Made by a program: the position numbers and the translations under genes. The notes beneath the pieces were generated by a model that worked only from the letters and a program-made list of their open reading frames with translations, ran no database searches and had not been told where the DNA came from. A stretch of DNA of 64,000 bases from the NCBI GenBank assembly GCA_043788365.1, contig JAYVTZ010000011.1, forward strand, positions 31,272 through 95,271. Direction: 5' to 3'. This stretch comes from Burkholderiaceae bacterium. Its GTDB lineage: Bacteria > Patescibacteriota > Saccharimonadia > Saccharimonadales > AQU-01. Positions 12,995-49,116 of the stretch are shown here, one piece after another. How positions within the stretch are numbered: the stretch's first letter is position 1; each line of letters starts with the position of its first letter.

Positions 12995-13414
12995 ATGGAT
13001 CAAACAATTAGTTCACAAAAAGTAGTAATCGTAGAAGATAATGTTGCCTTAGCAGAAATATACAAAACGCGTCTTGGGCTACTGGGTTATACCTGTTTCA
13101 CAGCTTATGATGGAGTTGAAGCGCTAGAAGTAATTGAGCGAGAGCTCCCCGGACTGGTCTTGCTGGATTTAATGGTTCCTAAAATTGCTGGTGACCAAAT
13201 TCTAGCTAGAATGCGTTCGACACCATGGGGTAAAGACATTAAAGCCTTGATAATCTCGAACTTAAATGAAGCCGACGCACCTCCAGGACTTAGAGAAATG
13301 GGGATCGAGGGCTATGCAGTTAAGATGAACCTCTCGAATGACCAGCTCGACCAACTGGTTGACAGTATTCTAAAGCCCACGGGTCAGACTGAGTCGACTA
13401 GCCTTGAAGGCTAG
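12995..13414 (+). CDS. Stand-alone CheY-like receiver domain protein
   Basis: VVIVEDN...LVLLDLMVP...AVKMN receiver pattern, no output domain. Confidence 0.85.
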   Translation: MDQTISSQKVVIVEDNVALAEIYKTRLGLLGYTCFTAYDGVEALEVIERELPGLVLLDLMVPKIAGDQILARMRSTPWGKDIKALIISNLNEADAPPGLREMGIEGYAVKMNLSNDQLDQLVDSILKPTGQTESTSLEG

Positions 13415-13440
13415 CGCGAATATTTTTGTTACGAATTAAA

Positions 13441-14010
13441 CTATTCAGTCACGAAATCAGTGCCGTTCCAATGGTAGACGTTAGTTATGCTGTCGGTACC
13501 GCCGGGTGTTTCGATATCGCCCTTCTCTGTCAGTTTTACGCCGCTAATTGACCATGTCGAGTGGTTGAGTCGCTGGGCCGTTGGCACGAACCAGAGTTCC
13601 TGGGGCTGATTTTTAGTGTCGAGTGTCCAAACGGCGGCAAAACTCGACCCAAGTGTTCCGGGGATTTTAGCCCATACGAAGGCATCGGTTATACCATCGC
13701 CGTTAAAGTCAGTGTAGGTCGGCGTAACTCCGGAATCCGTCCAAGCTGTAAAATCGGCCAAGCGACGACGGAAACTAGCGTTTAGTAATCCTGCCGGGTC
13801 TAGCGATTGGATTTGGGCCTGCTTAACTGTTGTCGGTTGCGGTGTTGGTGCGCTTTGTACTGCTGTATTTGTCGGACTTGGTTTTGTTGACTGTGTCTGA
13901 TTATTACTGCTGGCTGGGTTGTTGTGTTTAGAGCCAATAATATATGCACCTCCACCAACTCCACCCAAAACAATCACACTAATTACTATTTGCACGAGTT
14001 TACGATTCAT
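13441..14010 (-). CDS. Membrane-anchored exoprotein with FG-GAP/VCBS-like motif
   Basis: Start moved to ATG 14010 (AGGAG RBS). TM anchor, Pro/Thr/Gln linker, DFNGDGITD Ca-binding-like motif. Confidence 0.5.
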   Translation of the reverse strand: MNRKLVQIVISVIVLGGVGGGAYIIGSKHNNPASSNNQTQSTKPSPTNTAVQSAPTPQPTTVKQAQIQSLDPAGLLNASFRRRLADFTAWTDSGVTPTYTDFNGDGITDAFVWAKIPGTLGSSFAAVWTLDTKNQPQELWFVPTAQRLNHSTWSISGVKLTEKGDIETPGGTDSITNVYHWNGTDFVTE

Positions 14011-37490: not shown

Positions 37491-37647
37491 ATTACTACCT
37501 TGACGCGTCCTGTCTTTGTTTGACACCTATATTAGCCTTAACGTATCATGGTTCGCACTTCAAGTCAAAGATTTAAGTGTTTTCTGTGGATAACCCCACT
37601 ACGCCTAATAGTTGATAATAATTGTAAATAGTTGTATAATATACGAT

Positions 37648-38469
37648 ATGGCTGAAGGTGCAACTGCTCTAGATAGAATGCTTTTAGTCACGCCACGTGA
37701 TGCTTTGGCGTTTGCAATGGGCTCGTCTGTCGTAAGAGGCAGCATGCACAGATATGCCGATAGTCTGCTAATTACTCCCGAACGGGGCGCTTTACCGATA
37801 TTTTGGTGCGCTGAGGGCGATACTGACATTGAGGGTCCTATGCCTAGAGTTAGTCATACCAGTCCTTTGATAGGAAGTTTTCAATATACAAGAAGTGATG
37901 GCGCAGCAGCGATGGGTACGTTGAATCCTGAACAAAAACGCCAATCAGTTAATGATACACTCGATAAGTATTCAGGAAGCTCATCTTTTGTGATTCTTGA
38001 TGAGGTGCAAAAGGGTGGTACTATGGCGGAACTAACTCCGATAGTACGAAAAAGAGGTGCTGGTTTAGCGATAATAGCGGCCCAAGATTCGCGTACTAGA
38101 GTTTCAAGAGAACATAAAAACAAGTATTACACGCAACTAGCTTCAAATAGCATAGGTGGAGTTAGCGTTTCGGTCGTACCTATGCCACTAATAGCGACAG
38201 ATAGATCCCTACTACTCAATCAACTCTATCTAAATGGAAATGAGACTAATTTAAGAGATGCCAAGCCAGATATTATCTTGAATGAAAATACAGATGCCCA
38301 GACCATATTCAGGCAATTGGGCACACTAGTTAGGCACGCTGGCTATTCACATAGTGACGAATTCTTGCATCAACTTGGGGCCTTACCGCGTCAGCAATCA
38401 ACGGATGGCGCTTTAGAACAATGGGCCGAACGAGTCGTTGCCCACACCCATAGCAGGATTAATAATTAA
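37648..38469 (+). CDS. Hypothetical protein with phosphoribosyltransferase-like PRPP motif
   Basis: ATG 37648 follows TATAAT (37635-37640). SFVILDEVQKGGTMAEL resembles the type I PRTase PRPP loop. Weak call. Confidence 0.4.
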   Translation: MAEGATALDRMLLVTPRDALAFAMGSSVVRGSMHRYADSLLITPERGALPIFWCAEGDTDIEGPMPRVSHTSPLIGSFQYTRSDGAAAMGTLNPEQKRQSVNDTLDKYSGSSSFVILDEVQKGGTMAELTPIVRKRGAGLAIIAAQDSRTRVSREHKNKYYTQLASNSIGGVSVSVVPMPLIATDRSLLLNQLYLNGNETNLRDAKPDIILNENTDAQTIFRQLGTLVRHAGYSHSDEFLHQLGALPRQQSTDGALEQWAERVVAHTHSRINN

Positions 38470-38503
38470 AATAGCCCGACCGTTAATAAGTCGGGCTATT
38501 TGA
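38468..38503. terminator. Bidirectional intrinsic terminator between convergent genes
   Basis: ATAGCCCGAC-9 nt-GTCGGGCTAT perfect 10-bp stem flanked by A-run and T-run. Confidence 0.6.
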
Positions 38504-38522
38504 TTGAAATAACAGTAGTTAT

Positions 38523-38903
38523 TTAGACTAGTTCAACTGTTGCGCCAGCATCTTCTAGCGTCTTCTTAGCGGCTTCTGCGTCTTCCTTCTTAGCCTTTTC
38601 TAAGATAGTCTTTGGAGCACCATCAACTAGAGCTTTAGCTTCACCAAGACCTAAGCCAGTGATGTCCTTAACAGCTTTGATGATAGCGACCTTCTGAGCA
38701 CCAGCGTCCTTTAGAACAACGTCGTACTCACTCTTAGCTTCTTCAGCAGGAGCAGCGTCACCACCAGCGGCTGGACCGGCTACAGCAACTGCGGCTGCAG
38801 CTGGTTCAATACCATATTCATCCTTTAGGATGGTCTTTAGTTCGTTAACTTCTAGGACGGTTAGTCCTGTAAGCTGTTCTGCTAATTTCTTTAAATCTGC
38901 CAT
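38523..38903 (-). CDS. rplL: 50S ribosomal protein L7/L12
   Basis: Canonical sequence (Ala-rich hinge, [27 protein letters not shown]). Confidence 0.96.
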
Positions 38904-38928
38904 TGTATAAAACCTTTCTTAAATTAAC

Positions 38929-39450
38929 TTATTTAGCCTTGGCTTCGATGCCATCAAGCAGCGCGTGAAGATTGCCAGATAGGCCACCCATAACACCGTC
39001 GAGCGGTGATGAAAGTGTCGCCAGTACCTGTGCGATCAATTGGTTCTTGCCTGGTAGTAGCGCCAATGCTTTAACATCGTCAGCACTTATAAAGACGCCC
39101 TCGCTAGTAATGCCACCGACGAATTGTATGGTAGGCGCAGTTTTAGCAAATTTTGCTAGTACTTGAGCCGATGCCACTTCGTCGTTTGCATTAAAAGCAT
39201 ATAAAATCTGTCCTTTTAGCGCGCTTGTGTCAACATTCTTAAATCTATCACTAGATGAAAGAGCCTTGATGACTAGGCGGTTTTTGACGACTTTTACGTA
39301 TGTTGAGTTTTCACGAGCTGCTTTACGTAGCTCTTGCAACTCTTTAACGCTGGTACCAGTGTAAGCCGCTAGTACGGTGAGTTTTGAAGTATCTAGAAGT
39401 CCAGTGACTTCATCGAGTACTTCGTTTTTCTTTATTCTACTCAGTGCCAT
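38929..39450 (-). CDS. rplJ: 50S ribosomal protein L10
   Basis: MALSRIKKNEV... start at ATG 39450; adjacent to rplL. Confidence 0.9.
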   Translation of the reverse strand: MALSRIKKNEVLDEVTGLLDTSKLTVLAAYTGTSVKELQELRKAARENSTYVKVVKNRLVIKALSSSDRFKNVDTSALKGQILYAFNANDEVASAQVLAKFAKTAPTIQFVGGITSEGVFISADDVKALALLPGKNQLIAQVLATLSSPLDGVMGGLSGNLHALLDGIEAKAK

Positions 39451-39513
39451 ATTTGTTTGGTTCCTTTTGTAGTTAATTTCAGTCATCGACCACAACTGAT
39501 AGTTACCGAAATA

Positions 39514-39544
39514 AAAAGTCTTTGACTATTCATCAAAGACTTTT
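39514..39544 (-). terminator. Terminator/attenuator hairpin in the rplJ leader
   Basis: Perfect 12-bp stem AAAAGTCTTTGA / TCAAAGACTTTT, followed on the minus strand by TATTTCGG; about 65 nt upstream of the rplJ start. Confidence 0.5.
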
Positions 39545-39685
39545 GTAATTCGAAGAGATATAAATCTGACCTCGGTAGCATTTTTACATGTTGTTTCACA
39601 ACTTCATCGCTACTGTCTTTGGTAACAGACGTATTGTAGGTGATTTAACAGATTAAGTCAAGTTAATGCAACACTAGGTATTAGG

Positions 39686-39964
39686 CTATGAGGCTGCACC
39701 TCGCCTAGCTATTGCCACAGCTGTCATTTCTTCGATCGTTATTGATTCTGATTGACCATCAACAAGGCGAATACTGCCGTCGTAGCCAACCACTGGTGTT
39801 TGTGGTGCGTCAGAGGGTAGTAGTACTCGTCTTCTCTCGAGATAATTACGATATTGTTGCATTACTTGCTCAGTTGGCATTACTTCAGACGGGTCAATAG
39901 TATCATCACCGACATATTCCCCTCCATAAAACTCTCTCATGCCCCTTTGATTAGTGTCTGTCAT
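39686..39964 (-). CDS. Hypothetical protein (92 aa)
   Basis: ORF only. Confidence 0.4.
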   Translation of the reverse strand: MTDTNQRGMREFYGGEYVGDDTIDPSEVMPTEQVMQQYRNYLERRRVLLPSDAPQTPVVGYDGSIRLVDGQSESITIEEMTAVAIARRGAAS

Positions 39965-39982
39965 ATTTAGCTTTCTTTAAAA

Positions 39983-40399
39983 TTATGGTTGCTGAATTTG
40001 TATTTCAATAGTGTCGCCCGGGTCTTCGGGATGTGTTTCGGCATAGTTATCAGGCAATACCCCAAAATAGTTACTTGGTGGCGGGGCAGGAAATTTCCTA
40101 CCCTCTTGTTGCAGTTTCAAAATTCTATCATTGTTCGATTCGTAAGGTGGCATGTCGTCGGGGTAATCAGTGGCACTCATGACAGATTCCGAATTATCAG
40201 ACACAGGAGTAATGCTAATATTTGGTAGTGGCAACCCTCTATGCGACCTTAGCGCGCGCAGCCCAGCTCTCTCAAATGCTCCGTTTCTGCCGTTATTTTT
40301 GCCAGCATCTGGTACGTATGCTCTGCCCATCATTATGGCGTCGCCGCTCGATATACCAATAGCCATGTCATTAATTGCTTGTCTTCTAATACCAGTCAT
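39983..40399 (-). CDS. Hypothetical protein (138 aa, Pro/Asp-rich C-terminus)
   Basis: ORF only. Confidence 0.4.
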   Translation of the reverse strand: MTGIRRQAINDMAIGISSGDAIMMGRAYVPDAGKNNGRNGAFERAGLRALRSHRGLPLPNISITPVSDNSESVMSATDYPDDMPPYESNNDRILKLQQEGRKFPAPPPSNYFGVLPDNYAETHPEDPGDTIEIQIQQP

Positions 40400-40660
40400 T
40401 TCTACTCCTATACTTAAAATTAAAAAGCTCTAACATTTGTTAGGGCTCTGTTGTTCTTGGCTGTACCCGGCGTTTGTCTTTGTTTGACTTACGCGGCCCC
40501 AACTAAATCAGGGCACAGCCTTGGAAGGTTGAGCACGAGAAGCAATTGGTTAGAAACAGTTTTCATTGCGTGGAAGTATATAGCAACACAAAACTATGGT
40601 CAATAGCCAAGATTAATATAGTCAAAATAGTGTTTAAATAATAACTAGTACATAACACAA

Positions 40661-40689
40661 TTGAGTGTATTGACAAAATGGTGTATAAT
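40661..40689 (+). promoter_or_regulatory. Promoter-like element TTGAGT-17-TATAAT
   Basis: TTGAGT 40661-40666, TATAAT 40684-40689, upstream of the ORF at 40751. Confidence 0.4.
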
Positions 40690-40750
40690 ATAACCTGTTT
40701 TTGAGAATATATAAAAACATAATTCAAAATAATTTGATCACAAGGGCGAT

Positions 40751-41272
40751 ATGAGTGCGACTGAAAAACGGGGGATTCAACGGATAATGTCACTAGACGA
40801 TGCCGAAGCGCAACGCTTGGCTTTTGTTAAATTTGGTGCTGAGCTCGATGCATTGGGTCGGAAACGGATAAAGGGTAATGATATGGCTATTCGTGCCGTT
40901 CAGATCATAAAGAATGAGGTCGAGCCCCAGTATGTCAATCCAGAGGACCCAAGCAATAAAGTAATCCGTCCAATGACGTTCAAATATGGCGATGAGCTAA
41001 CGGCCCCAAAACTGGATTCTTTTTTAAAGGGTCTAAGATTTGTTGGCGCCGAAAACGGCTTAATCTTGCCCGATGTTAGTATTCATGAGGTCGATGAAAC
41101 GCCAATTACTTGGGCGACCTACGAGCCAAGCGGTGCCCACATTACTGCTAGTGTAGTTTCGACGGAACATGAAGAGCATCAACGAATACGTAGACTATAT
41201 CCCGAGATCAGAAAAAACATTGGTGATATGGCTATTTTTCAGCTCGTCAGGCCTGGTGACGGAATTTTTTAG
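40751..41272 (+). CDS. Hypothetical protein (173 aa)
   Basis: ORF only; converges on and overlaps the tmk-thyX stop by 4 nt. Confidence 0.5.
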   Translation: MSATEKRGIQRIMSLDDAEAQRLAFVKFGAELDALGRKRIKGNDMAIRAVQIIKNEVEPQYVNPEDPSNKVIRPMTFKYGDELTAPKLDSFLKGLRFVGAENGLILPDVSIHEVDETPITWATYEPSGAHITASVVSTEHEEHQRIRRLYPEIRKNIGDMAIFQLVRPGDGIF

Positions 41273-43545
41273 TCGATTTGCGATAATTTGAACTGTGTAT
41301 AGCGTTCGGCTGCTAGTCTTGTCAGTTCTGGGTCTTCGTCTTGATTAACAAACTTCATGGCTTCACCAAGCAGAGGGTGGACTTCACTAAGCCTGGAGTG
41401 CATTTCTCTGACTAACTTACGGTAGCCTGGATGACCTTGTGGCGTCGTACGCAGTTCATGAAAATGAAATGCTTGACGAGCGTTATAAGTGATCTTCCAG
41501 CGCATTTTGTGCCCTAGGAGTGTGGCGTACTGAGCTTCGAGCTCATAGCCAGCCGATCGAAGCTCACTATTAAGCCGAAGACTAATGTCAAAGCACTCGT
41601 CAAACTTATCACTAAGTCCTGCTTCTTCTACTAATGCTGGCACTTCGTATCCATAACGTGGAGTAAGGAGCTGCCATTCTAAATCATCAACCATGCGATG
41701 ACGCTGCAAGTCACGGAATATCCCATAGTCACAGATAAGGTCCCAGCTGTAATGGGCCTTCTCTATTGCTCGTCCTGGTTTATGACGACGATTAAGCCTC
41801 TCACCTATATACGCTTTAAACACTTCTTCCCTTTTTTCGTATGGCCACTTCTCGACTTCTTTAGTGATTTCATCCAACGATAGGTTGCTATGTTCGTATA
41901 GCATATCTGGCACAAGATCTAGCTCATTACGGGGCCAGATAGCCTCAAGCCTTACTTCATCTAGGTGTTGTCCGTATTTGTCGGGTAAATTGTTCTTTGC
42001 CATCGCCTTGACGGCGTTATATGTATTGGCTCGATAAGCAATTGCAGCACCGCCACGCTCTGGTTTATCTGCTCGCTCGAGTAGTGACGGCAAAACCTTT
42101 CTGGCTTCGTTCAGAATCTTCTGACCAACCTGCTGGGCTTCAGGTAATTCGTCGGCCAGTAGGTGCATAATTAAGCTTTCTAAAGCTTGGCCCGATGCAA
42201 AGATACCAACAGTTGACTTAGTCGATACCGGTAGGACAGGGCGTATGGCGTCACAGGCTTGTGCCCGAGTTGCTCCAAGCCAGGCCGCATCTTGTTCTGC
42301 CTTCGGTATTTTGCTATTTCGCCTGACATAGTCGCTCAGTTCACGGACCATAAGGGAGTAAACATCAAAAATTTCATCCATGGCGGTCTTGTACTTTAAT
42401 TTGGTTTCTAGGTCAAAATTGTCAGGCGTGAAATAACGATACTTACCACGCGCATCTTTCTGATCAAAGTATATATACCTGGTTGACTGCTCCAGATAAG
42501 CGGCAAGCCTACCCCACTCCAGTTTCTTAGTTAATAGGTTGGAGGCGTTTTCGACCACAATATGCTGTCCAACAAGTTGTTGAACGGAATCGTCTCCATA
42601 GGCAGTAATTACTCGTTGTAAAAGCTTTTCATCCTTGCCTGCCTGACCGGCAAATTCATCAAGAAGGGTTATTCGCATATCATCACCGCGACGACTAAGT
42701 CGCGCCATTGCGGCAGCAATCGTAACTGGACTTAATTCTTGGCTAAAGGCATAAACGTCGTCTTCGGTCTCGCTGACATATTTTGCTAACTCAGCGTAGC
42801 CAGCGTCGGTAATAGTAAAACGACCTTCGTCGTCCTTAGTCAGCAGTGGTTCATTAGACGTTTTTGAGACTACTTTGCTAGTAACTGACGGCTGGTTGAC
42901 TATGGACTTTGCCTCTTGTCTGGAAGCTAGTAATTGTGCGACGTGTGCCCAAACGCTCTTAAAGACCTCTAGTGGTTCGCCTATTGCCGAAACTACGGGT
43001 AGATTACGATTCTTTGCTTCAATTAAGTAACCGTCACGGACTTTAGTCAGGAAATCTTCCGGAAGGTTATCAAAACGCTCGCCTTGATAGCGTCCCTTGA
43101 CTCGTTCGCGCAAATGTTCAATCGGTGCATCTAGAACGATAGTAAGGTCGGGTTCCATATCGCCAACTGCAAAACCAATAATGTTATTAATGGTGTCATA
43201 CTCGGGCACGTCACCACGGCCATAGTATTGGATGGCTAGTGTTGTTAGATAATTGCGGTCAACTATGCAAGTTACGCCCTGTTCAACACTTTCCCGTATG
43301 ACCTGAAGCGACTGAGACCTAGCTGCGTTATAAAGTAGCACTTCAGTCCTAGTATTCATCGGGTACTGTGGACTTTGGGTAAGGTGTCGTATTGTACGAG
43401 CCGTTAAGTCGCTCTGACTGTCTGGTTCACGCAACAGCCTAACTGCCAGACCCGATGCCTGAAGATATTTTGCCAGTATTTTAATCTGAGTAGTTTTGCC
43501 TACTCCCTCAGCTCCTTCAATAACGATGTATTTACCTTTTATCAT
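41269..43545 (-). CDS. tmk-thyX: Fusion protein: thymidylate kinase (N-terminal ~205 aa) plus long-form ThyX-like flavin-dependent thymidylate synthase (C-terminal ~520 aa)
   Basis: Tmk: IEGAEGVGKTTQ P-loop, LREPDSQS, DRNYLTTLAIQ, lid RVKGRYQGERFD. ThyX-like: AAAMARLSRRG block and FRDLQRHRM...TPRYGY (RHR...RY). Confidence 0.78.
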   Translation of the reverse strand: MIKGKYIVIEGAEGVGKTTQIKILAKYLQASGLAVRLLREPDSQSDLTARTIRHLTQSPQYPMNTRTEVLLYNAARSQSLQVIRESVEQGVTCIVDRNYLTTLAIQYYGRGDVPEYDTINNIIGFAVGDMEPDLTIVLDAPIEHLRERVKGRYQGERFDNLPEDFLTKVRDGYLIEAKNRNLPVVSAIGEPLEVFKSVWAHVAQLLASRQEAKSIVNQPSVTSKVVSKTSNEPLLTKDDEGRFTITDAGYAELAKYVSETEDDVYAFSQELSPVTIAAAMARLSRRGDDMRITLLDEFAGQAGKDEKLLQRVITAYGDDSVQQLVGQHIVVENASNLLTKKLEWGRLAAYLEQSTRYIYFDQKDARGKYRYFTPDNFDLETKLKYKTAMDEIFDVYSLMVRELSDYVRRNSKIPKAEQDAAWLGATRAQACDAIRPVLPVSTKSTVGIFASGQALESLIMHLLADELPEAQQVGQKILNEARKVLPSLLERADKPERGGAAIAYRANTYNAVKAMAKNNLPDKYGQHLDEVRLEAIWPRNELDLVPDMLYEHSNLSLDEITKEVEKWPYEKREEVFKAYIGERLNRRHKPGRAIEKAHYSWDLICDYGIFRDLQRHRMVDDLEWQLLTPRYGYEVPALVEEAGLSDKFDECFDISLRLNSELRSAGYELEAQYATLLGHKMRWKITYNARQAFHFHELRTTPQGHPGYRKLVREMHSRLSEVHPLLGEAMKFVNQDEDPELTRLAAERYTQFKLSQID

Positions 43546-43553
43546 AGCTTCTA

Positions 43554-44267
43554 TCAGTCATAGACTGACCCCTCAACTTTATCTGGAGTAGAGCGTTTAT
43601 CGAGATAGGCTTTAGGCAGCATCATATCTGGTGACCAGGTTTTGATAATTGTATCAAGGTCAGTACCTTTTTGATATTTACCGCTGAAGCTGTTATCTCT
43701 ACCTAGCCCATAGTCACCGTCAACTTCGCCAGTTTCATGAAAAACAATCTGGGCAATACGCTCACCTACTGGTAAAACAACTGTTTCTCGCTCATTCAGG
43801 TTATAAATCTCTAGTGTCAGACGGTTTATGTAGCCCGGATCAATCCAGCCAGCATCAAAACAGACAGCCACACCGTTGCGGCCCCAACTCGAGCGACTTT
43901 TGACCTCACTAGCACCTGGAGCTTTTATGCCAAAAAACTCGTGAGTATGAGCAAGGATGCGCTCACCTGGTTTTAATGCAATCACTGGGTGTTCTGGTGG
44001 GATGCCGACGAGCGGCTTAAAGCCATTGAGCTTACACCATTGTTCGTGCGGCAAAGCCTTAAAAGGACCTTCGAAATATCGTTCAACATCCTCGGCGTCA
44101 AAGGGGTTATAGATTGTGCGTTCGTTCATCTTCTCAATACGATAATAGTAATAGCCAAGTGTGACATCAAGGCTAGCGTGACTGACATGCTTAGGATTAA
44201 AAGGCACGCAAACGATGTGACCCTCATCCATGGCACGACGTATTTCAATATTGCTATAAACTCCCAA
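43554..44267 (-). CDS. dcd: dCTP deaminase family protein (Dcd or Dcd-Dut)
   Basis: TTG start 4 nt after GGAGGG. IEIRRAMDEGHIV N-terminus and SSWGRNGVAV...DAGWIDPGY...LEIYN...GERIAQIVF core. Confidence 0.85.
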   Translation of the reverse strand: MGVYSNIEIRRAMDEGHIVCVPFNPKHVSHASLDVTLGYYYYRIEKMNERTIYNPFDAEDVERYFEGPFKALPHEQWCKLNGFKPLVGIPPEHPVIALKPGERILAHTHEFFGIKAPGASEVKSRSSWGRNGVAVCFDAGWIDPGYINRLTLEIYNLNERETVVLPVGERIAQIVFHETGEVDGDYGLGRDNSFSGKYQKGTDLDTIIKTWSPDMMLPKAYLDKRSTPDKVEGSVYD

Positions 44268-44494
44268 GTACCCTCCAAATCTCTGCTAGTATCTATTGTA
44301 CGTGACAATTTGACATGAGCGCAATATCTATAGTGAAATATTACAACCTTTTGTGAAGGTGTGAGATTGCGTTAAGGGCCGTGGGCTTAAATAAGCAATA
44401 ATGAATCAGAAAGAGAAAGGAAAAATAGTATTAGTATATGGGAAGTCTGAAGATTCGTTCCTGGTTGCATTCTGTTGCTTTACACCCTCTTGCA

Positions 44495-45034
44495 CTAGAT
44501 TAGCTCAATCGCCTTGCTATCATAGTCTTTACGCATCAGCACCAAGAAAGTTAGACCATAGTTGTTGCCCGGACCCTTTGGAACGACTTTTTTGGAGATT
44601 TCGATCCAGTCACCCTTGTCATAGACTGGGAAAAAACGGTCGCCTACTATGTCGGCATCAATTTCTGTCAGATACATATGATCAACAATTCCTCTATCAA
44701 GACAATATTTATAAAGTCCGCTACCGCCAACAATGAAAACTTCTTCGGTCGGTGACAGGGCACTAGTGGCGGCTAAGGCTTGCTTAAGACTAGTGGCTAA
44801 TTCGAACCCATCATGTACAGAATTGAGGCTGCTCGAAACCACAATATTGCGGCGATTTATCAATGGTTTCTGACGATGACTATAGATTGATTCATACGTA
44901 TGGCGGCCCATGATAACCGTAGCGCCATCAGTTATCTTATTGAAATGAGCCTTATCCAGTGGCAAATTCCAGGGTAATTGGTTGTTATTGCCAATAACAC
45001 GATTGTTTGTGTAGGCGGCGATAATTGAAATCAT
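44495..45034 (-). CDS. folA: Dihydrofolate reductase
   Basis: IGNNNQLPWNLPLDKAHFNKIT, VIMGRHTYESI, FIVGGSGLY, GDRFFP motifs. Confidence 0.9.
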   Translation of the reverse strand: MISIIAAYTNNRVIGNNNQLPWNLPLDKAHFNKITDGATVIMGRHTYESIYSHRQKPLINRRNIVVSSSLNSVHDGFELATSLKQALAATSALSPTEEVFIVGGSGLYKYCLDRGIVDHMYLTEIDADIVGDRFFPVYDKGDWIEISKKVVPKGPGNNYGLTFLVLMRKDYDSKAIELI

Positions 45035-45045
45035 AGAAATTAATT

Positions 45046-45804
45046 TTAATTAAATCTTTTGGTTTGGTAAAGCTTTTGTAGACTATTATCGGCGATATCT
45101 TTGACGACTTGCTTGGCGCACTTCAACATGTCTTCTACGGTGCCATTACTAACAATCGTACTATCGGTTGGTATATTGTCACGTTCTCGTTCGGTCGGGT
45201 CGAGCATGTCGTATTGCAAATGATCGGGCCTATAGACTTTTACAATAGCCCCACCAGCCCTGTGTACATTGTTGGCGTCGCGAGGGAATCTGAGACCGCC
45301 AATGATGCAAATCTTATAGCCGGCGTCTTCTGACGCTTTGACCCTACGAATAATCTCATCGTACCAAATGTCTCCACTGACGCGCTGAACCAAATAGCCT
45401 CCAAGCCATTGCAATATTGGTCGGTACGCCTCCTTATTATCGACGGTAATTTCTTGATGAAGCATGGCTGGGTTACGCTGCAGGCTTTCAAGGTGGAGCA
45501 TAAGTTTGTCGTATTCGATAGGATGGCGTTCGGCATCACTTTGATCAATTTCTATTTGCGAAAAGGTGCATTTCTGATGAACAATTTCTTCTAAGATCGC
45601 TGGTAGCGGCTTTAGCCAGTCGTTGATACTTTCTACACTATAGCGGTCTGGTAGCTTAGCTGTTGCTTTGTGCAGGGCGTTAGCAACTTCAGCAATTATA
45701 AGGCTAGATTCAAATCGTATCGTTGAATCTTCAAAGCTTTTTACAGCCTTTGCAAACGTACTCTTGCCATGACCAATAGGCCCAGTCATACCGATAATAA
45801 TCAT
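45046..45804 (-). CDS. P-loop nucleotide kinase, phage-type dNMP-kinase-like
   Basis: GMTGPIGHGKST Walker A. RPILQWLGGYLVQRVSGDIWY, ICIIGGLRFPRDANNV and VSNGTVEDM blocks parallel the dNMP kinase family layout. Moderate call. Confidence 0.5.
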   Translation of the reverse strand: MIIIGMTGPIGHGKSTFAKAVKSFEDSTIRFESSLIIAEVANALHKATAKLPDRYSVESINDWLKPLPAILEEIVHQKCTFSQIEIDQSDAERHPIEYDKLMLHLESLQRNPAMLHQEITVDNKEAYRPILQWLGGYLVQRVSGDIWYDEIIRRVKASEDAGYKICIIGGLRFPRDANNVHRAGGAIVKVYRPDHLQYDMLDPTERERDNIPTDSTIVSNGTVEDMLKCAKQVVKDIADNSLQKLYQTKRFN

Positions 45805-45858
45805 AAGCTTTATCTTACCAGTTTGATACGACTATGGGAACTGCATTTTGAGCGAAAT

Positions 45859-46812
45859 TTAGGACAAAGTAACTTTGATGCTCGGACCCATTGATGTCGT
45901 CATGTGGATAGATTTAACAAACACGGCACCTTTAAGTGAAGCTGGTTTAGCTGACTTAATAGCCGAGATAACTGCATCGGCGTTCTTTTCAAGCTTGTCG
46001 ACACCAAAGCTAACCTTACCAACGGCCAGGTGTACGATACCAGTACTATCAACGCGGAATTCAACCTTACCGGCCTTTGCCTCTGTAACGGCCTTAACAA
46101 CATCGGCAGTGACCGTACCGCTTTTGGGATTGGGCATTAGCCCCTTTGGACCTAGGACACGAGCATATTTACCTAATTTTGGCATCATAGCCGGTGTACA
46201 AATCAGAATATCAAAATCGATAACATTCTTATCTAGTTCAGCAAAAATATCATCACTACCAGCTTTGTCAGCACCAGCCTTAAGAGCGGCTTCGACATCC
46301 TTAGTATCGGCTAGAACGGCAATTTTAATCTTTTTACCAGTACCCGATGGCAGGGCTATGCTACCACGAATGTTCTGGTCGGCTTGACGAGGATCGACTG
46401 CTAAGTTAATGTGCAACTCAACGCTAGCGTCAAACTTAACTGGGCTTGTCTTGATTACTGTAGCAAGAGCATCCTTGAGTTCATAAACCTTATACTTATC
46501 AACAAGTTCGTGGGCTTTTCGGTAGGCCTTACTGCGACGTTCTAGAACACTTCTAGCTGGCTTTTGATGGTGCTTTGGTGCTTCAGCCTGTTCTTCAGTC
46601 TTATGCTTGCGTTCTTCCTTAGCAACTTCTGCCTCGGCTTCTTTGATGGCCTTAGGGCTACGCTTACCAGCCTTTGCGAGCTTAATTTCAGCAACTGGAG
46701 TCTCTACAACCGCAGTTGTCTCAACAATTTCTGTTTCTTTAGCGACAACTTTGGGTGCTACTTTTTTTGATTTTGGACTAGTCGCCTTAGCGACTTTCTT
46801 GGCTTCCGCCAT
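45859..46812 (-). CDS. rplA: 50S ribosomal protein L1 with ~90 aa Lys/Ala/Glu-rich N-terminal extension
   Basis: The canonical L1 core starts near RSKAYRKAHELVDKYKVYEL. ATG 46812 has a GAAGGAG RBS, and no alternative start codon lies near the core. Confidence 0.9.
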   Translation of the reverse strand: MAEAKKVAKATSPKSKKVAPKVVAKETEIVETTAVVETPVAEIKLAKAGKRSPKAIKEAEAEVAKEERKHKTEEQAEAPKHHQKPARSVLERRSKAYRKAHELVDKYKVYELKDALATVIKTSPVKFDASVELHINLAVDPRQADQNIRGSIALPSGTGKKIKIAVLADTKDVEAALKAGADKAGSDDIFAELDKNVIDFDILICTPAMMPKLGKYARVLGPKGLMPNPKSGTVTADVVKAVTEAKAGKVEFRVDSTGIVHLAVGKVSFGVDKLEKNADAVISAIKSAKPASLKGAVFVKSIHMTTSMGPSIKVTLS

Positions 46813-46907
46813 AATGACTCCTTCGTGGTATTAACGGCTGTTCAAGGCCTCCCACAAATTAAATTTTATTACTTTAACTATAGCATTTAACAGAGTTATT
46901 GACAAGT

Positions 46908-47189
46908 TTAGTAAAAGAATACTCGGTCGATTGCAGTCACCGGGTCTCGACTCTCGCCTAATTTTGTCGAAGTCCGTACAAATGCTCGTCTATTAGCCTC
47001 AGAACCGAACTGATTAACGAAGTCAACTACAACTCGACTGTCATTCACTACCAGGCGACCCACTTTTCCTTCGTGGATCAGCTCGTATAGCCTTCCTAAA
47101 TTCTCTGGAGGTCGGTGACCAGGAATATGCTCCTGAACGGCGTGGCTCATAAAGCCGATTGCACCCTTATTAAAGGTTGATAAATCCAT
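46908..47189 (-). CDS. Hypothetical protein (93 aa) between rplK and rplA
   Basis: ATG lies 6 nt after the rplK stop. Confidence 0.4.
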   Translation of the reverse strand: MDLSTFNKGAIGFMSHAVQEHIPGHRPPENLGRLYELIHEGKVGRLVVNDSRVVVDFVNQFGSEANRRAFVRTSTKLGESRDPVTAIDRVFFY

Positions 47190-47195
47190 AGACGG

Positions 47196-47624
47196 CTAGC
47201 CTTCGACAACAACACCCATACTACGAGCTGTACCAGCTACCATCTTGGCAACGGCTTCAACGTCGTCAGTATTCATATCTCGAGCCTTAGCTTCGGCAAT
47301 TTCGTGTAATTGAGTCTGTGTCAGTTTCTTAGCAATTTTCTCACTGTTTGGCTTGCCAGAACCCTTTTCGATACCTAATTTGGCACGAATCATATCGTCA
47401 GTTGGTTGTGTAACGACACGGAACGACATGGTTCTATCTTCGTAGATTGCAATATGTGCGGTGACTGTAACATTACCAAGATCACGAGTTTGGTCGTTAA
47501 ATGGTTGGATGAAATCCATCATGTTAACGCCATACTGACCGAGCGTACTACCTACTGGTGGCGCAGCAGTTGCTTTACCGGCAGGGATCTTAAGTTTCAA
47601 ATTTGCTGTAATTTTCTTAGCCAT
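47196..47624 (-). CDS. rplK: 50S ribosomal protein L11
   Basis: Canonical (KLKIPAGKATAAPPVGSTLGQYGVN...). Confidence 0.96.
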   Translation of the reverse strand: MAKKITANLKLKIPAGKATAAPPVGSTLGQYGVNMMDFIQPFNDQTRDLGNVTVTAHIAIYEDRTMSFRVVTQPTDDMIRAKLGIEKGSGKPNSEKIAKKLTQTQLHEIAEAKARDMNTDDVEAVAKMVAGTARSMGVVVEG

Positions 47625-47699
47625 AATAATTTAACTTCTTTCTTGTACCGAGGTTTGAAGCTCCTGCGGTAAAACGTGCGTAACTTAACTACAATTATA

Positions 47700-47933
47700 C
47701 TACAGATTACCTCTGTTGTCTAGAACTTCCATGGCTTCTTGTGTGCTGACACTTGAAAGCATCGATAAGCTACCAAGAATTACATGTACCCCACCGAACA
47801 ATGGATTTGATAGTTCTGTTTCAGCAGCTCCGATAGCAATCGACACAATTCCAACGTAAAATGCTGTGCGCTCAATCACAGGCAACTGTTCTGCAAAGTT
47901 TGCCATCCGAGCGGAGATTTCAAAAAGACCCAT
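47700..47933 (-). CDS. Possible small membrane protein between nusG and rplK
   Basis: The track ORF overlaps nusG by 47 nt; trimmed to the internal ATG 47933. No clear RBS. Confidence 0.3.
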   Translation of the reverse strand: MGLFEISARMANFAEQLPVIERTAFYVGIVSIAIGAAETELSNPLFGGVHVILGSLSMLSSVSTQEAMEVLDNRGNL

Positions 47934-47955
47934 CGCGCTAAATATCCAAACTGGA

Positions 47956-48498
47956 CTAGGTCTTTTTAACTTGAAGGCTGTCGAGTTCGACTGGCGTTTC
48001 ACGGCCGAACATATTAACTAGAACTTTTAGCTTACCCTTAGCGTGATCAATTTCGTTAATCGCGCCGTCAAAGCCCTTAAATGGTCCATCAGTAATACTA
48101 ACGACGTCGCCAATATTGTAGTCCATCTTGAATTTAGGCTGATCGATACCCATACGCTTTTGAATCTTATCCATTTCGTCATTATCGATTGGTGTTGGCT
48201 CGGTGCCGCTACCGACGAAACCAGTGACACTTGGCGTGTTACGGACGATGTACCAAGCGTCTTCTGATAACTTCATTTGAACCAGTACATAGCCTTGGAA
48301 AATCCGTTTTTCGACGACTTTGCGTTTGCCGTTCTTAATTTCGATCATTTTCTCTTTTGGTACTAGAACCTGAAAAATTTTATCTTTCATGTCTAGACTT
48401 TCGGCGCGCTGACGAATACTTTCTGCCACTTTTTCTTCATAGCCACTATAGGTATGAATGGCGTACCATTGTTTGCTAGTGTCGTATCTTTTACTCAT
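47956..48498 (-). CDS. nusG: Transcription termination/antitermination factor NusG
   Basis: WYAIHTYSGYEEKV NGN start and KOW (GDVVSITDGPFKGFDGAINEID). Confidence 0.96.
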   Translation of the reverse strand: MSKRYDTSKQWYAIHTYSGYEEKVAESIRQRAESLDMKDKIFQVLVPKEKMIEIKNGKRKVVEKRIFQGYVLVQMKLSEDAWYIVRNTPSVTGFVGSGTEPTPIDNDEMDKIQKRMGIDQPKFKMDYNIGDVVSITDGPFKGFDGAINEIDHAKGKLKVLVNMFGRETPVELDSLQVKKT

Positions 48499-48518
48499 GG
48501 TCTATCTCCTTAGAATGA

Positions 48519-48923
48519 TTACTTAAGAACTACTTTTCTGAATATGATGTCTAACCCGTAGTCGACAACGGCTACAAGAATTCCAAAAATGATAGCAAAG
48601 GCAAAAACCGCAAGTGTCAACTTAGTGGTTTCCTTGCGATCAGGCCAGGTTACTTGTTTAAGCTCTGCCCATGATTCACGAAAATAGCGTGGTATGACAT
48701 AGCGTCGCTTGTTCATGAACCGACCAACTCTGTTGTCAGGTAACGGCAAGTAGTACTCTTGCTTACCAATCTTGCGGGCAACTTTAATTGGTCTCACGAC
48801 TTTACTGGCGGTTGAGCGAATCCTTCGTTTCTTGATAGGCGCATCTGTAACGGCCTGAGCCTTTTGTCGAACAGTCTCCGTACTTGTGCGTAGCTTTCGT
48901 TTTGTCTTCGGTTTATCGGCCAT
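48519..48923 (-). CDS. secE: Preprotein translocase subunit SecE (long basic N-terminal extension)
   Basis: C-terminal ELKQVTWPDRKET plus a single TM; immediately upstream of nusG. Confidence 0.8.
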   Translation of the reverse strand: MADKPKTKRKLRTSTETVRQKAQAVTDAPIKKRRIRSTASKVVRPIKVARKIGKQEYYLPLPDNRVGRFMNKRRYVIPRYFRESWAELKQVTWPDRKETTKLTLAVFAFAIIFGILVAVVDYGLDIIFRKVVLK

Positions 48924-48944
48924 ATCTCTCCCTTACCCTAACCA

Positions 48945-48998
48945 ATTTAAAAAGTCTACCGTGAAATAGTAGACTTTGGTTCAAAGTCAAGTCTACCC
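48945..48998 (-). promoter_or_regulatory. Putative attenuator (alternative hairpins) in the secE-nusG leader
   Basis: Minus strand: GTAGACTT (48996-48989) ... AAGTCTAC (48976-48969) ... GTAGACTTT (48959-48951) then TTAAATT. The middle element can pair with either flank. Confidence 0.35.
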
Positions 48999-49116
48999 CA
49001 TATGGTGATATTGGTCAAGGCCAGAACTTAATCTAATAATAAACTTTCGAAATTGGAGGACAGCCCATATAACCTAATGAGTATCGTACACTGCGACAAT
49101 CCTATATAGTAAGGTT

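Follow-up and report, generated by a model that had tools for sequence, protein, structure and literature searches.

A conserved block of deoxynucleotide genes, with a putative leader-peptide attenuator, between rplA and rplJ in Saccharibacteria

Results

Genes between rplA and rplJ

The secE-nusG-rplKAJL cluster is among the most conserved gene orders of bacteria and serves as an anchor for synteny and binning. We analyzed a 64,000-nt stretch of DNA (hereafter the window; contig JAYVTZ010000011.1, positions 31,272 to 95,271, assembly GCA_043788365.1, assigned to the Saccharimonadia by GTDB) in which this cluster is interrupted between rplA and rplJ by a block of genes for deoxynucleotide metabolism. 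Based on the list of open reading frames (ORFs) and on profile searches, the minus strand carries, in this order, secE, nusG, rplK, orf93, rplA, a deoxynucleoside monophosphate (dNMP) kinase gene, folA, dcd and a tmk-thyX fusion. These are followed by orf173 on the plus strand and, again on the minus strand, by orf138, orf92, an L10 leader, rplJ and rplL (Table 1). The genes rplA and rplJ are separated by 6.4 kb and seven ORFs. The original prediction, made from the sequence alone, had described this broken adjacency, a set of genes oriented toward the supply of deoxythymidine triphosphate (dTTP) and a terminator-bearing leader before rplJ. Searches against Pfam, NCBIfam, PHROG and Rfam showed that its gene identities and coordinates were correct, that the families encoded in the block form a coherent dTTP-oriented pathway and that the leader is an RF00557 element with a complete terminator hairpin.

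Table 1. Features of the rplK-rplL region (coordinates are those of the window; aa, amino acids).
Feature	Coordinates	Strand	Evidence or remark
Promoter-like TAGACA-17-TATAAT near rplK	47722-47694	-	Motif
rplK (L11)	47196-47624	-	ORF; matches 54-93% identical, same place in relatives
orf93 (93 aa), orphan between rplK and rplA	46908-47189	-	ORF
Promoter-like TTGTCA-17-TATAGT near rplA	46905-46877	-	Motif
rplA (L1), 317 aa	45859-46812	-	PF00687, E = 3.5e-58
Spacer between rplA and dNMP kinase, 54 nt	45805-45858	-	No terminator-like site
dNMP kinase, T4 gp1-like	45046-45804	-	PHROG 139, E = 1.3e-20; AlphaFold2 (AF2) model
folA (dihydrofolate reductase)	44495-45034	-	PF00186, E = 4.7e-45
Promoter-like block before dcd	44295-44352	-	Near-invariant in L002, L017 and L137
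dcd (dCTP deaminase), 237 aa	43554-44267	-	PF22769; TIGR02274, 95.2 bits (cutoff 92.8)
tmk-thyX fusion, 758 aa	41269-43545	-	TIGR00041, 108.3 bits; PF02223; PF02511
orf173, convergent orphan	40751-41272	+	ORF
Promoter-like TTGACC-17-TATACT of the attenuator unit	40575-40603	-	Position conserved in relatives
Putative leader-peptide ORF, 25 aa, MKTVSNQLLLVLNLPRLCPDLVGAA	40489-40566	-	Open in 26 of 26 distinct homologues
Putative attenuator RNA	40415-40532	-	Conserved block, folds, RNAalifold, pair counts, covariance model
P1	40520-40513 with 40466-40459	-	Invariant helix enclosing P2 and P3
P2	40512-40507 with 40503-40498	-	Helix
P3	40496-40467	-	Highly variable hairpin
Antiterminator	Segment B 40505-40495 with segment C 40448-40439	-	Covariation, RNAalifold
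Terminator hairpin, then U-run	40447-40426	-	Predicted
orf138, orphan, first gene past the putative attenuator	39983-40399	-	ORF
orf92, orphan	39686-39964	-	ORF
rplJ promoter-like TTGACT-17-TACAAT	39633-39661	-	Within a block conserved at 80% (L002, L017, L137)
L10(L12)4 autoregulatory leader with terminator hairpin	39503-39640	-	RF00557, 52.8 bits (cutoff 44)
rplJ	38929-39450	-	PF00466; likely true start at 39450
rplL	38523-38903	-	ORF; 25 nt from rplJ
Terminator after rplL	38501-38469	-	Predicted

Conservation of the split

We compared the locus with related loci, labelled by L-numbers (L002, L017, etc.), from two samples. For the genome sample, one genome per species was scanned with L1, which gave 51 Saccharibacteria loci, 33 of which span rplA to rplJ. 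The metagenome sample was anchored on dcd and gave 80 contigs, including 38 that span the same interval. Both scans yielded Saccharibacteria-like loci only, and the conservation counts apply to that lineage. The original prediction had proposed such a synteny comparison, and its outcome was uniform: rplA and rplJ are split in 33 of 33 spanning genome loci (by 2.8-9.7 kb, median 6.0 kb) and in 38 of 38 spanning metagenome loci (by 1.8-8.7 kb). Across the 33 genome loci, L1 proteins are 49-80% identical. On dcd-anchored contigs with sufficient flank, rplA lies upstream in 43 of 43 cases and rplJ lies downstream in 26 of 27.

The interval between the two genes, hereafter the slot, contains dcd in 29 of the 33 genome loci, thyX in 27, tmk in 20, the kinase gene in 14 and folA in six. 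The most persistent slot gene is dcd, and it is the only one of these in the smallest slot that we observed (L115, 1.8 kb). The arrangement is conserved within the sampled Saccharibacteria. The split is a lineage-wide variant of the gene order of a conserved ribosomal cluster, and neither a new mechanism nor a foreign island. We found no description of it in the literature on thyX in Saccharibacteria or on gene order in the Candidate Phyla Radiation (CPR).

Proteins of the block

Based on the known functions of these families, the core of the island would provide a short route to dTTP precursors. Dcd would act on dCTP to give dUTP or dUMP. Within the fusion protein, ThyX would methylate dUMP to dTMP and Tmk would phosphorylate dTMP to dTDP. 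Salvaged dNMPs would be substrates of the gp1-like kinase, and the dihydrofolate reductase encoded by folA would hold folate in its reduced form.

Profile and modelled fold agree that the kinase is a T4 gp1-like dNMP kinase, predicted to phosphorylate several dNMPs. Its match to PHROG 139 (dNMP kinase) spans residues 1-248, and its match to PF21448 is weak (20.7 bits, below the cutoff of 27.1); most of its homologues carry PF21448. The AF2 model has a predicted local distance difference test (pLDDT) score of 91, and the top Foldseek matches in the PDB were the two chains of T4 gp1, 1dek_B and 1dek_A (E = 6.7e-7, TM scores of 0.61-0.66), followed by a match with E = 7e-3. A phmmer search of PDB sequences with the kinase gave nothing useful. 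The protein shares the P-loop (GPIGHGKST) with T4 gp1 (1DEK) but is only ~15% identical to it, and it differs in being a chromosomal enzyme at a fixed site beside rplA whose relatives were found here only in Saccharibacteria. We detected 453 homologues; they come from Saccharibacteria wherever the source names the organism and are usually called "hypothetical".

The closest solved chain to Dcd is 4xjc. Chains 1ogh and 3gf0, whose deposits describe bifunctional enzymes that form dUMP, matched with E = 9e-8, against 2.4e-4 for the E. coli enzyme (1xs1). The best matches, 4xjc and 2qxx, are bifunctional as well, although their deposited names do not say so. Judging from these matches, Dcd is possibly bifunctional and dUMP-forming. 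Ser126, Arg130 and Glu153, which correspond to the catalytic residues of E. coli Dcd, do not vary among 20 sequences. The protein has 237 aa, compared with 150-204 aa in its solved relatives; it contains an insertion near residues 40-93, and its conserved C-terminal tail (SGKYQ...W.P..MLPKAY) lies beyond the reach of the shorter solved chains.

The fusion protein joins domains for two consecutive steps, dUMP to dTMP to dTDP, and both domains are recognized by their families (PF02511 and TIGR00041). The Tmk part covers residues 1-185, scores well above the TIGR00041 cutoff of 83.25 bits and matches Tmk chains of the PDB with E-values down to 4e-26. The protein is 80% identical throughout to a 750-aa fusion in L002. 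Its homologues number more than 7000 and carry no label in their sources other than "dTMP kinase". The ThyX part (41269-42795, minus strand) consists of two tandem Thy1 domains: PF02511 matches the whole protein with 108 bits and each half alone with 61 and 53 bits. It differs from known ThyX in being duplicated within one chain, fused to Tmk and divided in its signature. This signature is RHR(X)7S in the literature. Half 1 carries W344-G-R346(X)7S354 and half 2 carries R615-H-R617(X)7Q625, all of them invariant in 30 homologues. These Pfam matches and motifs raise the idea that the tandem domains might act as a pseudo-dimer. BLASTP found nothing between the two halves, and a sequence search of the PDB detected no solved ThyX for the ThyX part.

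Variability of the slot among relatives

We clustered the slot ORFs of all loci and annotated the cluster representatives with Pfam. In addition to the genes of the window, the slot may hold thyA, dCMP deaminase, a cytidylyltransferase-like protein, a HIT protein, a second kind of Thy1 protein, an HD 5'-deoxynucleotidase-like protein and thymidine kinase (tdk). Pfam-labelled gene calls on contigs of relatives agree with this inventory. On a rough NusG+L11+L1 tree, which is a quick neighbor-joining sketch, the slot type with dcd and tmk-thyX dominates. Modules of thyA, folA and dCMP deaminase form a deep group on this tree and also occur inside the thyX clade (L006 and L031), which suggests that thyX modules were exchanged for the thyA type in place, at the same site. 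Some loci are mixed (L135, 5405-11482; L133, 4478-12820), combining a thyA-folA-dCMP deaminase set with a 648-aa Tmk-domain fusion, or a kinase with a thyA module.

The presence of folA alongside thyX is confined to a small clade formed by the window, L002, L017 and L137. The closest homologues of this folA (50-55% identical) are neighbors of thyA in the corresponding slot of other Saccharibacteria. It looks from these matches like the only component that was added later, from within the lineage. We had considered a proteobacterial origin of the gene from its matches in Methylophilaceae and Shewanella (45-47% identical) and rejected it in view of the closer homologues in the slot of Saccharibacteria.

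Transcription layout

In other bacteria, rplKA is autoregulated by L1, and rplJL by L10(L12)4 acting on a separate leader (Fu et al. 2013, PMC3616713). The split thus coincides with the natural boundary between two separately regulated units of other bacteria. The RF00557 leader also lies directly before rplJ in L002, L004, L034 and L047. With its own promoter-like site and this leader, rplJL is, as far as its upstream motifs indicate, autonomous.

On the rplA side, terminator prediction found no site in the 54 nt after rplA, nor in most relatives of the dNMPK/dcd type, where the first gene past rplA is usually co-directional and 5-75 nt away. The same test was positive after rplL in 27 of 32 loci. 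Given the lack of a predicted terminator after rplA, transcription could plausibly continue from rplKA into the kinase gene and folA. The 227-nt spacer between folA and dcd contains a promoter-like sequence, TTGCGC (44324-44319) and TACAAT (44300-44295) separated by 18 nt. The block around it is near-invariant among the window, L002, L017 and L137, and the rest of the spacer cannot be aligned; dcd and tmk-thyX are thus very likely transcribed from a promoter of their own. This block (44295-44352, minus strand) carries AAAAGGTTGTAATATT upstream of the promoter-like sequence and may also hold an operator. A resemblance to an NrdR box, noted by eye in the block, was rejected, since L002 does not share the candidate sequence.

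The original prediction had placed the dTTP genes under or beside ribosomal-protein transcription. The missing terminator after rplA is consistent with this placement for the genes nearest to rplA, whereas dcd and rplJL have promoter-like sites of their own. The coupling of DNA-precursor synthesis to growth-rate control that the prediction went on to propose is a hypothesis.

A candidate leader-peptide attenuator upstream of orf138

Only two blocks of the interval from tmk-thyX to rplJ are conserved at the DNA level in the closest relatives. One is the L10 leader. The other is a non-coding block of ~120 nt (40414-40533, minus strand) that is 82-83% identical, while the proteins of the adjacent ORFs are ~30% identical. 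We located the corresponding element in other loci by motif search and then with a covariance model (E < 1e-5). The model has a single match in the window (40422-40532, 62.6 bits) and detects the element in 19 of 56 loci of the genome set and related loci and in 21 of 80 metagenome loci. Every element lies on the strand of rplA and rplJ and, where the flanks were mapped, between a thymidylate gene and rplJ. One locus, L054, carries two tandem copies (13404-13506 and 13825-13926), as does L057.

From 5' to 3', the element consists of a promoter, an ATG, a mini-ORF, the helices P1, P2 and P3, an A-rich linker, a terminator hairpin with a U-run and the ribosome-binding site of the next gene. In most relatives the ATG lies 7-9 nt past the -10 element, so that the transcript would be leaderless. 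The mini-ORF encodes 23-35 aa; the other two frames are open in only two and 14 of the 26 distinct homologues. Leu, Ile and Val dominate positions -7, -6, -5, -3 and 0 of the peptide, which has the core L-x-G-L-C-F-x-M-V-E-A, and this run sits just before P1. Segment B (GGUUGAAGCC), which is the 3' strand of P2, and segment C (GGCUUCAACC), which is the 5' half of the terminator, are complementary to each other. The stop codon of the mini-ORF falls 0-18 nt past segment B in 25 of 26 homologues; in the exception, L038, it lies 7 nt before the end of B and an extra base is present.

Several tests support two alternative structures. RNAalifold, applied to 23 distinct sequences, independently picked the pairing of B with C. 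In this antiterminator state 94.8% of cells are paired and eight of 10 pairs have changed on both sides; in the terminator state 85.3% of cells are paired and 13 pairs have changed on both sides. For either state, none of 500 shuffled alignments reached the observed percentage paired or the covariation score. Covariation counts in P3 are lowered by misalignment in MAFFT, and each sequence still forms the P3 hairpin when folded alone. Cognate duplexes of B and C have a mean energy of -11.4 kcal/mol, against -3.9 ± 2.1 kcal/mol with shuffled partners, and each of the four B:C sequence classes prefers its own partner.

We read this conserved leader as a leader-peptide attenuator whose mini-ORF is predicted to be translated. 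From the position of the stop codon, a ribosome that completes the peptide would cover segment B and allow termination, while stalling of the ribosome on the Leu/Ile run would leave segment B available for antitermination, the logic of classical attenuation. The signal would be the supply of leucine and isoleucine, as suggested by the codons of the run. No terminator was predicted between orf92 and the rplJ promoter, so that read-through into rplJL is possible.

The genes that follow the element are mostly small orphans, among which BLASTP detects no family; their products share only a recurrent C-terminal "LPA" and "PY.GTE" motif. In L066 the element precedes a gene for an ilvB-like thiamine pyrophosphate enzyme, ridA and ilvA (threonine dehydratase), and in L013 and L050 it precedes a gene for an HMGL/LeuA-like synthase. 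In L081 and L128, M20 peptidases lie farther downstream. An Rfam search of positions 38400-49000 gave no match at E ≤ 1 apart from the L10 leader, and a search with the L079 element returned only terminator-like chance matches (E ≥ 1).

The closest known counterparts are the leu and ilv leader-peptide attenuators, such as Leu_leader RF00512. Leu_leader is found in Gammaproteobacteria, and leader-peptide attenuators are known from Proteobacteria and Actinobacteria. The element resembles them in its putative leader ORF with Leu/Ile codons, which overlaps the first of four segments, in its alternative terminator and antiterminator and in the genes for branched-chain amino acid (BCAA) biosynthesis downstream in some relatives. 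It differs from them in matching no Rfam family, in its seemingly leaderless ORF, in the additional invariant P1 around P2 and P3 and in its usual place, here as well, before small orphan ORFs near rplJ instead of amino-acid biosynthesis genes. A search of the literature on leader-peptide attenuation in Patescibacteria found no such attenuator. The element is apparently undescribed and would extend a known class of regulators to a phylum for which none has been reported.

Discussion

Interpretation and alternative explanations

Our results suggest that the block is probably an old, vertically inherited deoxynucleotide island at the boundary between rplKA and rplJL, read out as five units. The kinase gene and folA would be expressed by read-through from rplKA (unit 1), dcd and tmk-thyX through the conserved promoter-like block before dcd (unit 2) and the convergent orf173 from the opposite strand (unit 3). 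In unit 4, orf138 and orf92 would be gated by a terminator/antiterminator switch together with a leaderless leader peptide rich in Leu and Ile, and rplJL would be transcribed from its own promoter under L10 autoregulation (unit 5). What we observed is that the arrangement and the RNA structures are conserved; co-transcription, enzyme specificities and the signal of the attenuator are proposals.

Several observations weigh against this interpretation. The slot tail of relatives also holds unrelated genes (LPG synthase, GGDEF, glycosyltransferase and APH), which fits a merely permissive site. Relatives of the thyA type do have a terminator after rplA, so that transcriptional coupling to rplKA is not a general property of the slot, and in the window the proposed read-through is deduced from the absence of a predicted terminator. 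The ThyX activity of the fusion is uncertain, as the RHR(X)7S signature is divided between its halves; TIGR02170 scores 37.7 bits on the ThyX part, below the cutoff of 87.9, and the AF2 model of the full-length 758-aa protein is poor (pLDDT 61.8). The bifunctionality of Dcd is a lead. Finally, the element of the window controls, if anything, only the orphans orf138 and orf92, and its terminator hairpin is weak (-5.7 kcal/mol).

It is possible that the boundary between rplA and rplJ is simply a permissive gap between operons, in which deoxynucleotide genes were kept by history without any regulatory link, and although we lean against this explanation we consider it a serious one. The size and content of the slot vary (1.8-9.7 kb), and the unrelated genes and the terminator of the thyA-type loci are as such a gap would predict; insertions also occur at the junctions nusG/rplK and rplK/rplA, and dcd has its own promoter-like block. 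Such a gap would, however, not be expected to retain the same functional class over deep divergence, even where thyX has been replaced by thyA, folA and dCMP deaminase, nor to be followed so regularly by a close, co-directional and terminator-free first gene in the dNMPK/dcd-type loci.

A second alternative concerns the element before orf138, which, instead of an attenuator, could be a gene for a small hydrophobic peptide whose mRNA is structured, or else a small RNA or protein-binding leader in which the ORF is incidental. The conserved and hydrophobic peptide core would suit a functional peptide, the invariant sequence of P1 is not required of a plain attenuator and most of the genes downstream have no link to leucine or isoleucine. 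We nevertheless find this quite unlikely. Where the peptide has the non-conservative changes F-to-P and E-to-G, compensatory base changes keep P2 and the antiterminator. Both of the mutually exclusive helices covary, the stop codon keeps its place relative to segment B in all homologues but L038, and in L066, L013 and L050 the genes downstream of the element are for BCAA biosynthesis.

The original prediction had seen a phage-like flavor in some of the genes and suggested a horizontal origin. What remains of this is the affiliation of the kinase to a phage-typical family (PHROG 139, with the fold of T4 gp1) and a gene set that resembles the nucleotide-precursor genes of large phages such as T4. 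A recently acquired, phage-derived genomic island is very improbable. The split is present at the same site in 71 of 71 spanning loci, no integrase, repeats or tRNA flank the block and the named sources of the 453 kinase homologues are Saccharibacteria. The kinase, folA, dcd, tmk-thyX and orf173 genes are native in GC content, in GC content at third codon positions and in codon usage (z-scores of -1.2 to -0.3 relative to 50 other long ORFs of the window); orf138 is a mild outlier in codon usage (z = 2.6). The nearest phage dNMP kinases are 23-31% identical and belong to actinophages, the group that dominates that collection, and a scan of viral contigs with the kinase alignment found no relative. 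The phage matches (H1-H9) come from phages of Arthrobacter, Microbacterium and Streptomyces. Their hosts belong to the Actinobacteria, a phylum that also hosts the cultured Saccharibacteria, which may merely reflect the make-up of the phage collection.

An assembly chimera at 45805-45858 or 39451-39685, which the original prediction had named as a caveat, is practically negligible as judged from assembled contigs: an independent Logan assembly of run SRR23617268 has the same order from secE to orf173 and is 100% identical across the rplA junction (45805-45858), the rplJ-side junction with its promoter and L10 leader is 80% identical at the DNA level to three related contigs with the same layout, and the same order recurs in dozens of metagenome-assembled genomes from different studies.

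Comparison with known gene clusters

As in the canonical secE-nusG-rplKAJL-rpoBC cluster (PMC3616713), secE, nusG, rplK, rplA and, farther on, rplJ and rplL follow one another on one strand, the L10 leader directly precedes rplJ, and regulation is divided between rplKA and rplJL, as it is in E. coli and Firmicutes. The locus differs from this cluster in that rplA and rplJ stand 1.8-9.7 kb apart throughout the sampled Saccharibacteria, with non-ribosomal genes between them, in the small orphan ORFs at the nusG/rplK and rplK/rplA junctions and in the absence of rpoBC after rplL.

Ribosomal-protein operons elsewhere also contain non-ribosomal genes, and secY-adk-map of Bacillus subtilis, which sit in the spc ribosomal-protein region, offer the closest analogy. 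There too, a nucleotide kinase gene lies behind ribosomal-protein genes in the same direction and without a terminator, a placement that could link the supply of nucleotides to growth. The island described here differs in comprising a whole deoxypyrimidine pathway, with at least one probable internal promoter, and in being attached to the L11/L1 unit.

These results indicate that a lineage of the CPR systematically interrupts the secE-nusG-rplKAJL cluster with deoxypyrimidine genes. This is of use for annotation, since the kinase is "hypothetical" and the fusion only "dTMP kinase" in their sources, and it bears on how these host-dependent bacteria make dTTP; the layout suggests, and does not prove, a coupling to ribosomal-protein expression. 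The attenuator, if true, would be an experimentally tractable regulatory RNA in a phylum with almost no known gene regulation.

A more far-reaching proposal would treat the rplA/rplJ junction as a position-locked hub, in which read-through into the DNA-precursor genes and a sensor of Leu/Ile charging are both tied to ribosomal-protein expression. Epibionts of this kind cannot make nucleotides or most amino acids. If the proposal held, the attenuator could read into rplJL and these reduced-genome epibionts could match replication and ribosome output to the supply from the host. We regard it as tentative and rather unlikely.

Neighboring genes and small ORFs

Searches of Pfam, PHROG and NCBIfam assigned no family to orf173, orf138 or orf92. 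The convergent orf173 has its own terminator hairpin (41244-41262) and evolves fast, with counterparts at the same place in L002 and L017 that are only 29-30% identical. orf138 is partly similar to two shorter ORFs in L002, L017 and L137, and orf92 has a homologue in none of the related loci.

Downstream of rplL, a terminator is followed by unrelated ORFs and dnaX in place of rpoBC. Directly past this terminator lies a 285-aa ORF (37612-38469, plus strand) with a counterpart in no related locus; in these loci, an orf181 homologue and dnaX directly follow rplL.

On the other side, the Pfam family Ribosomal_L11 matches an identical copy of rplK in L052. The L1 protein carries an N-terminal extension of ~100 aa rich in Lys, Ala and Glu (46513-46812), and PF00687 covers only residues 120-310; the L1 proteins of relatives are likewise long (312-342 aa). 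Small orphan ORFs fill the junctions rplK/rplA (orf93) and nusG/rplK (77 aa, 47700-47933, minus strand). orf93 has no match in Pfam, PHROG or NCBIfam, and a tblastn search of 137 related loci found it only in the identical L052 contig. In relatives, these two junctions hold other small ORFs or kilobase insertions, including two sigma-70 genes in L133. This variation suggests that every junction of the cluster has been loosened in this lineage.

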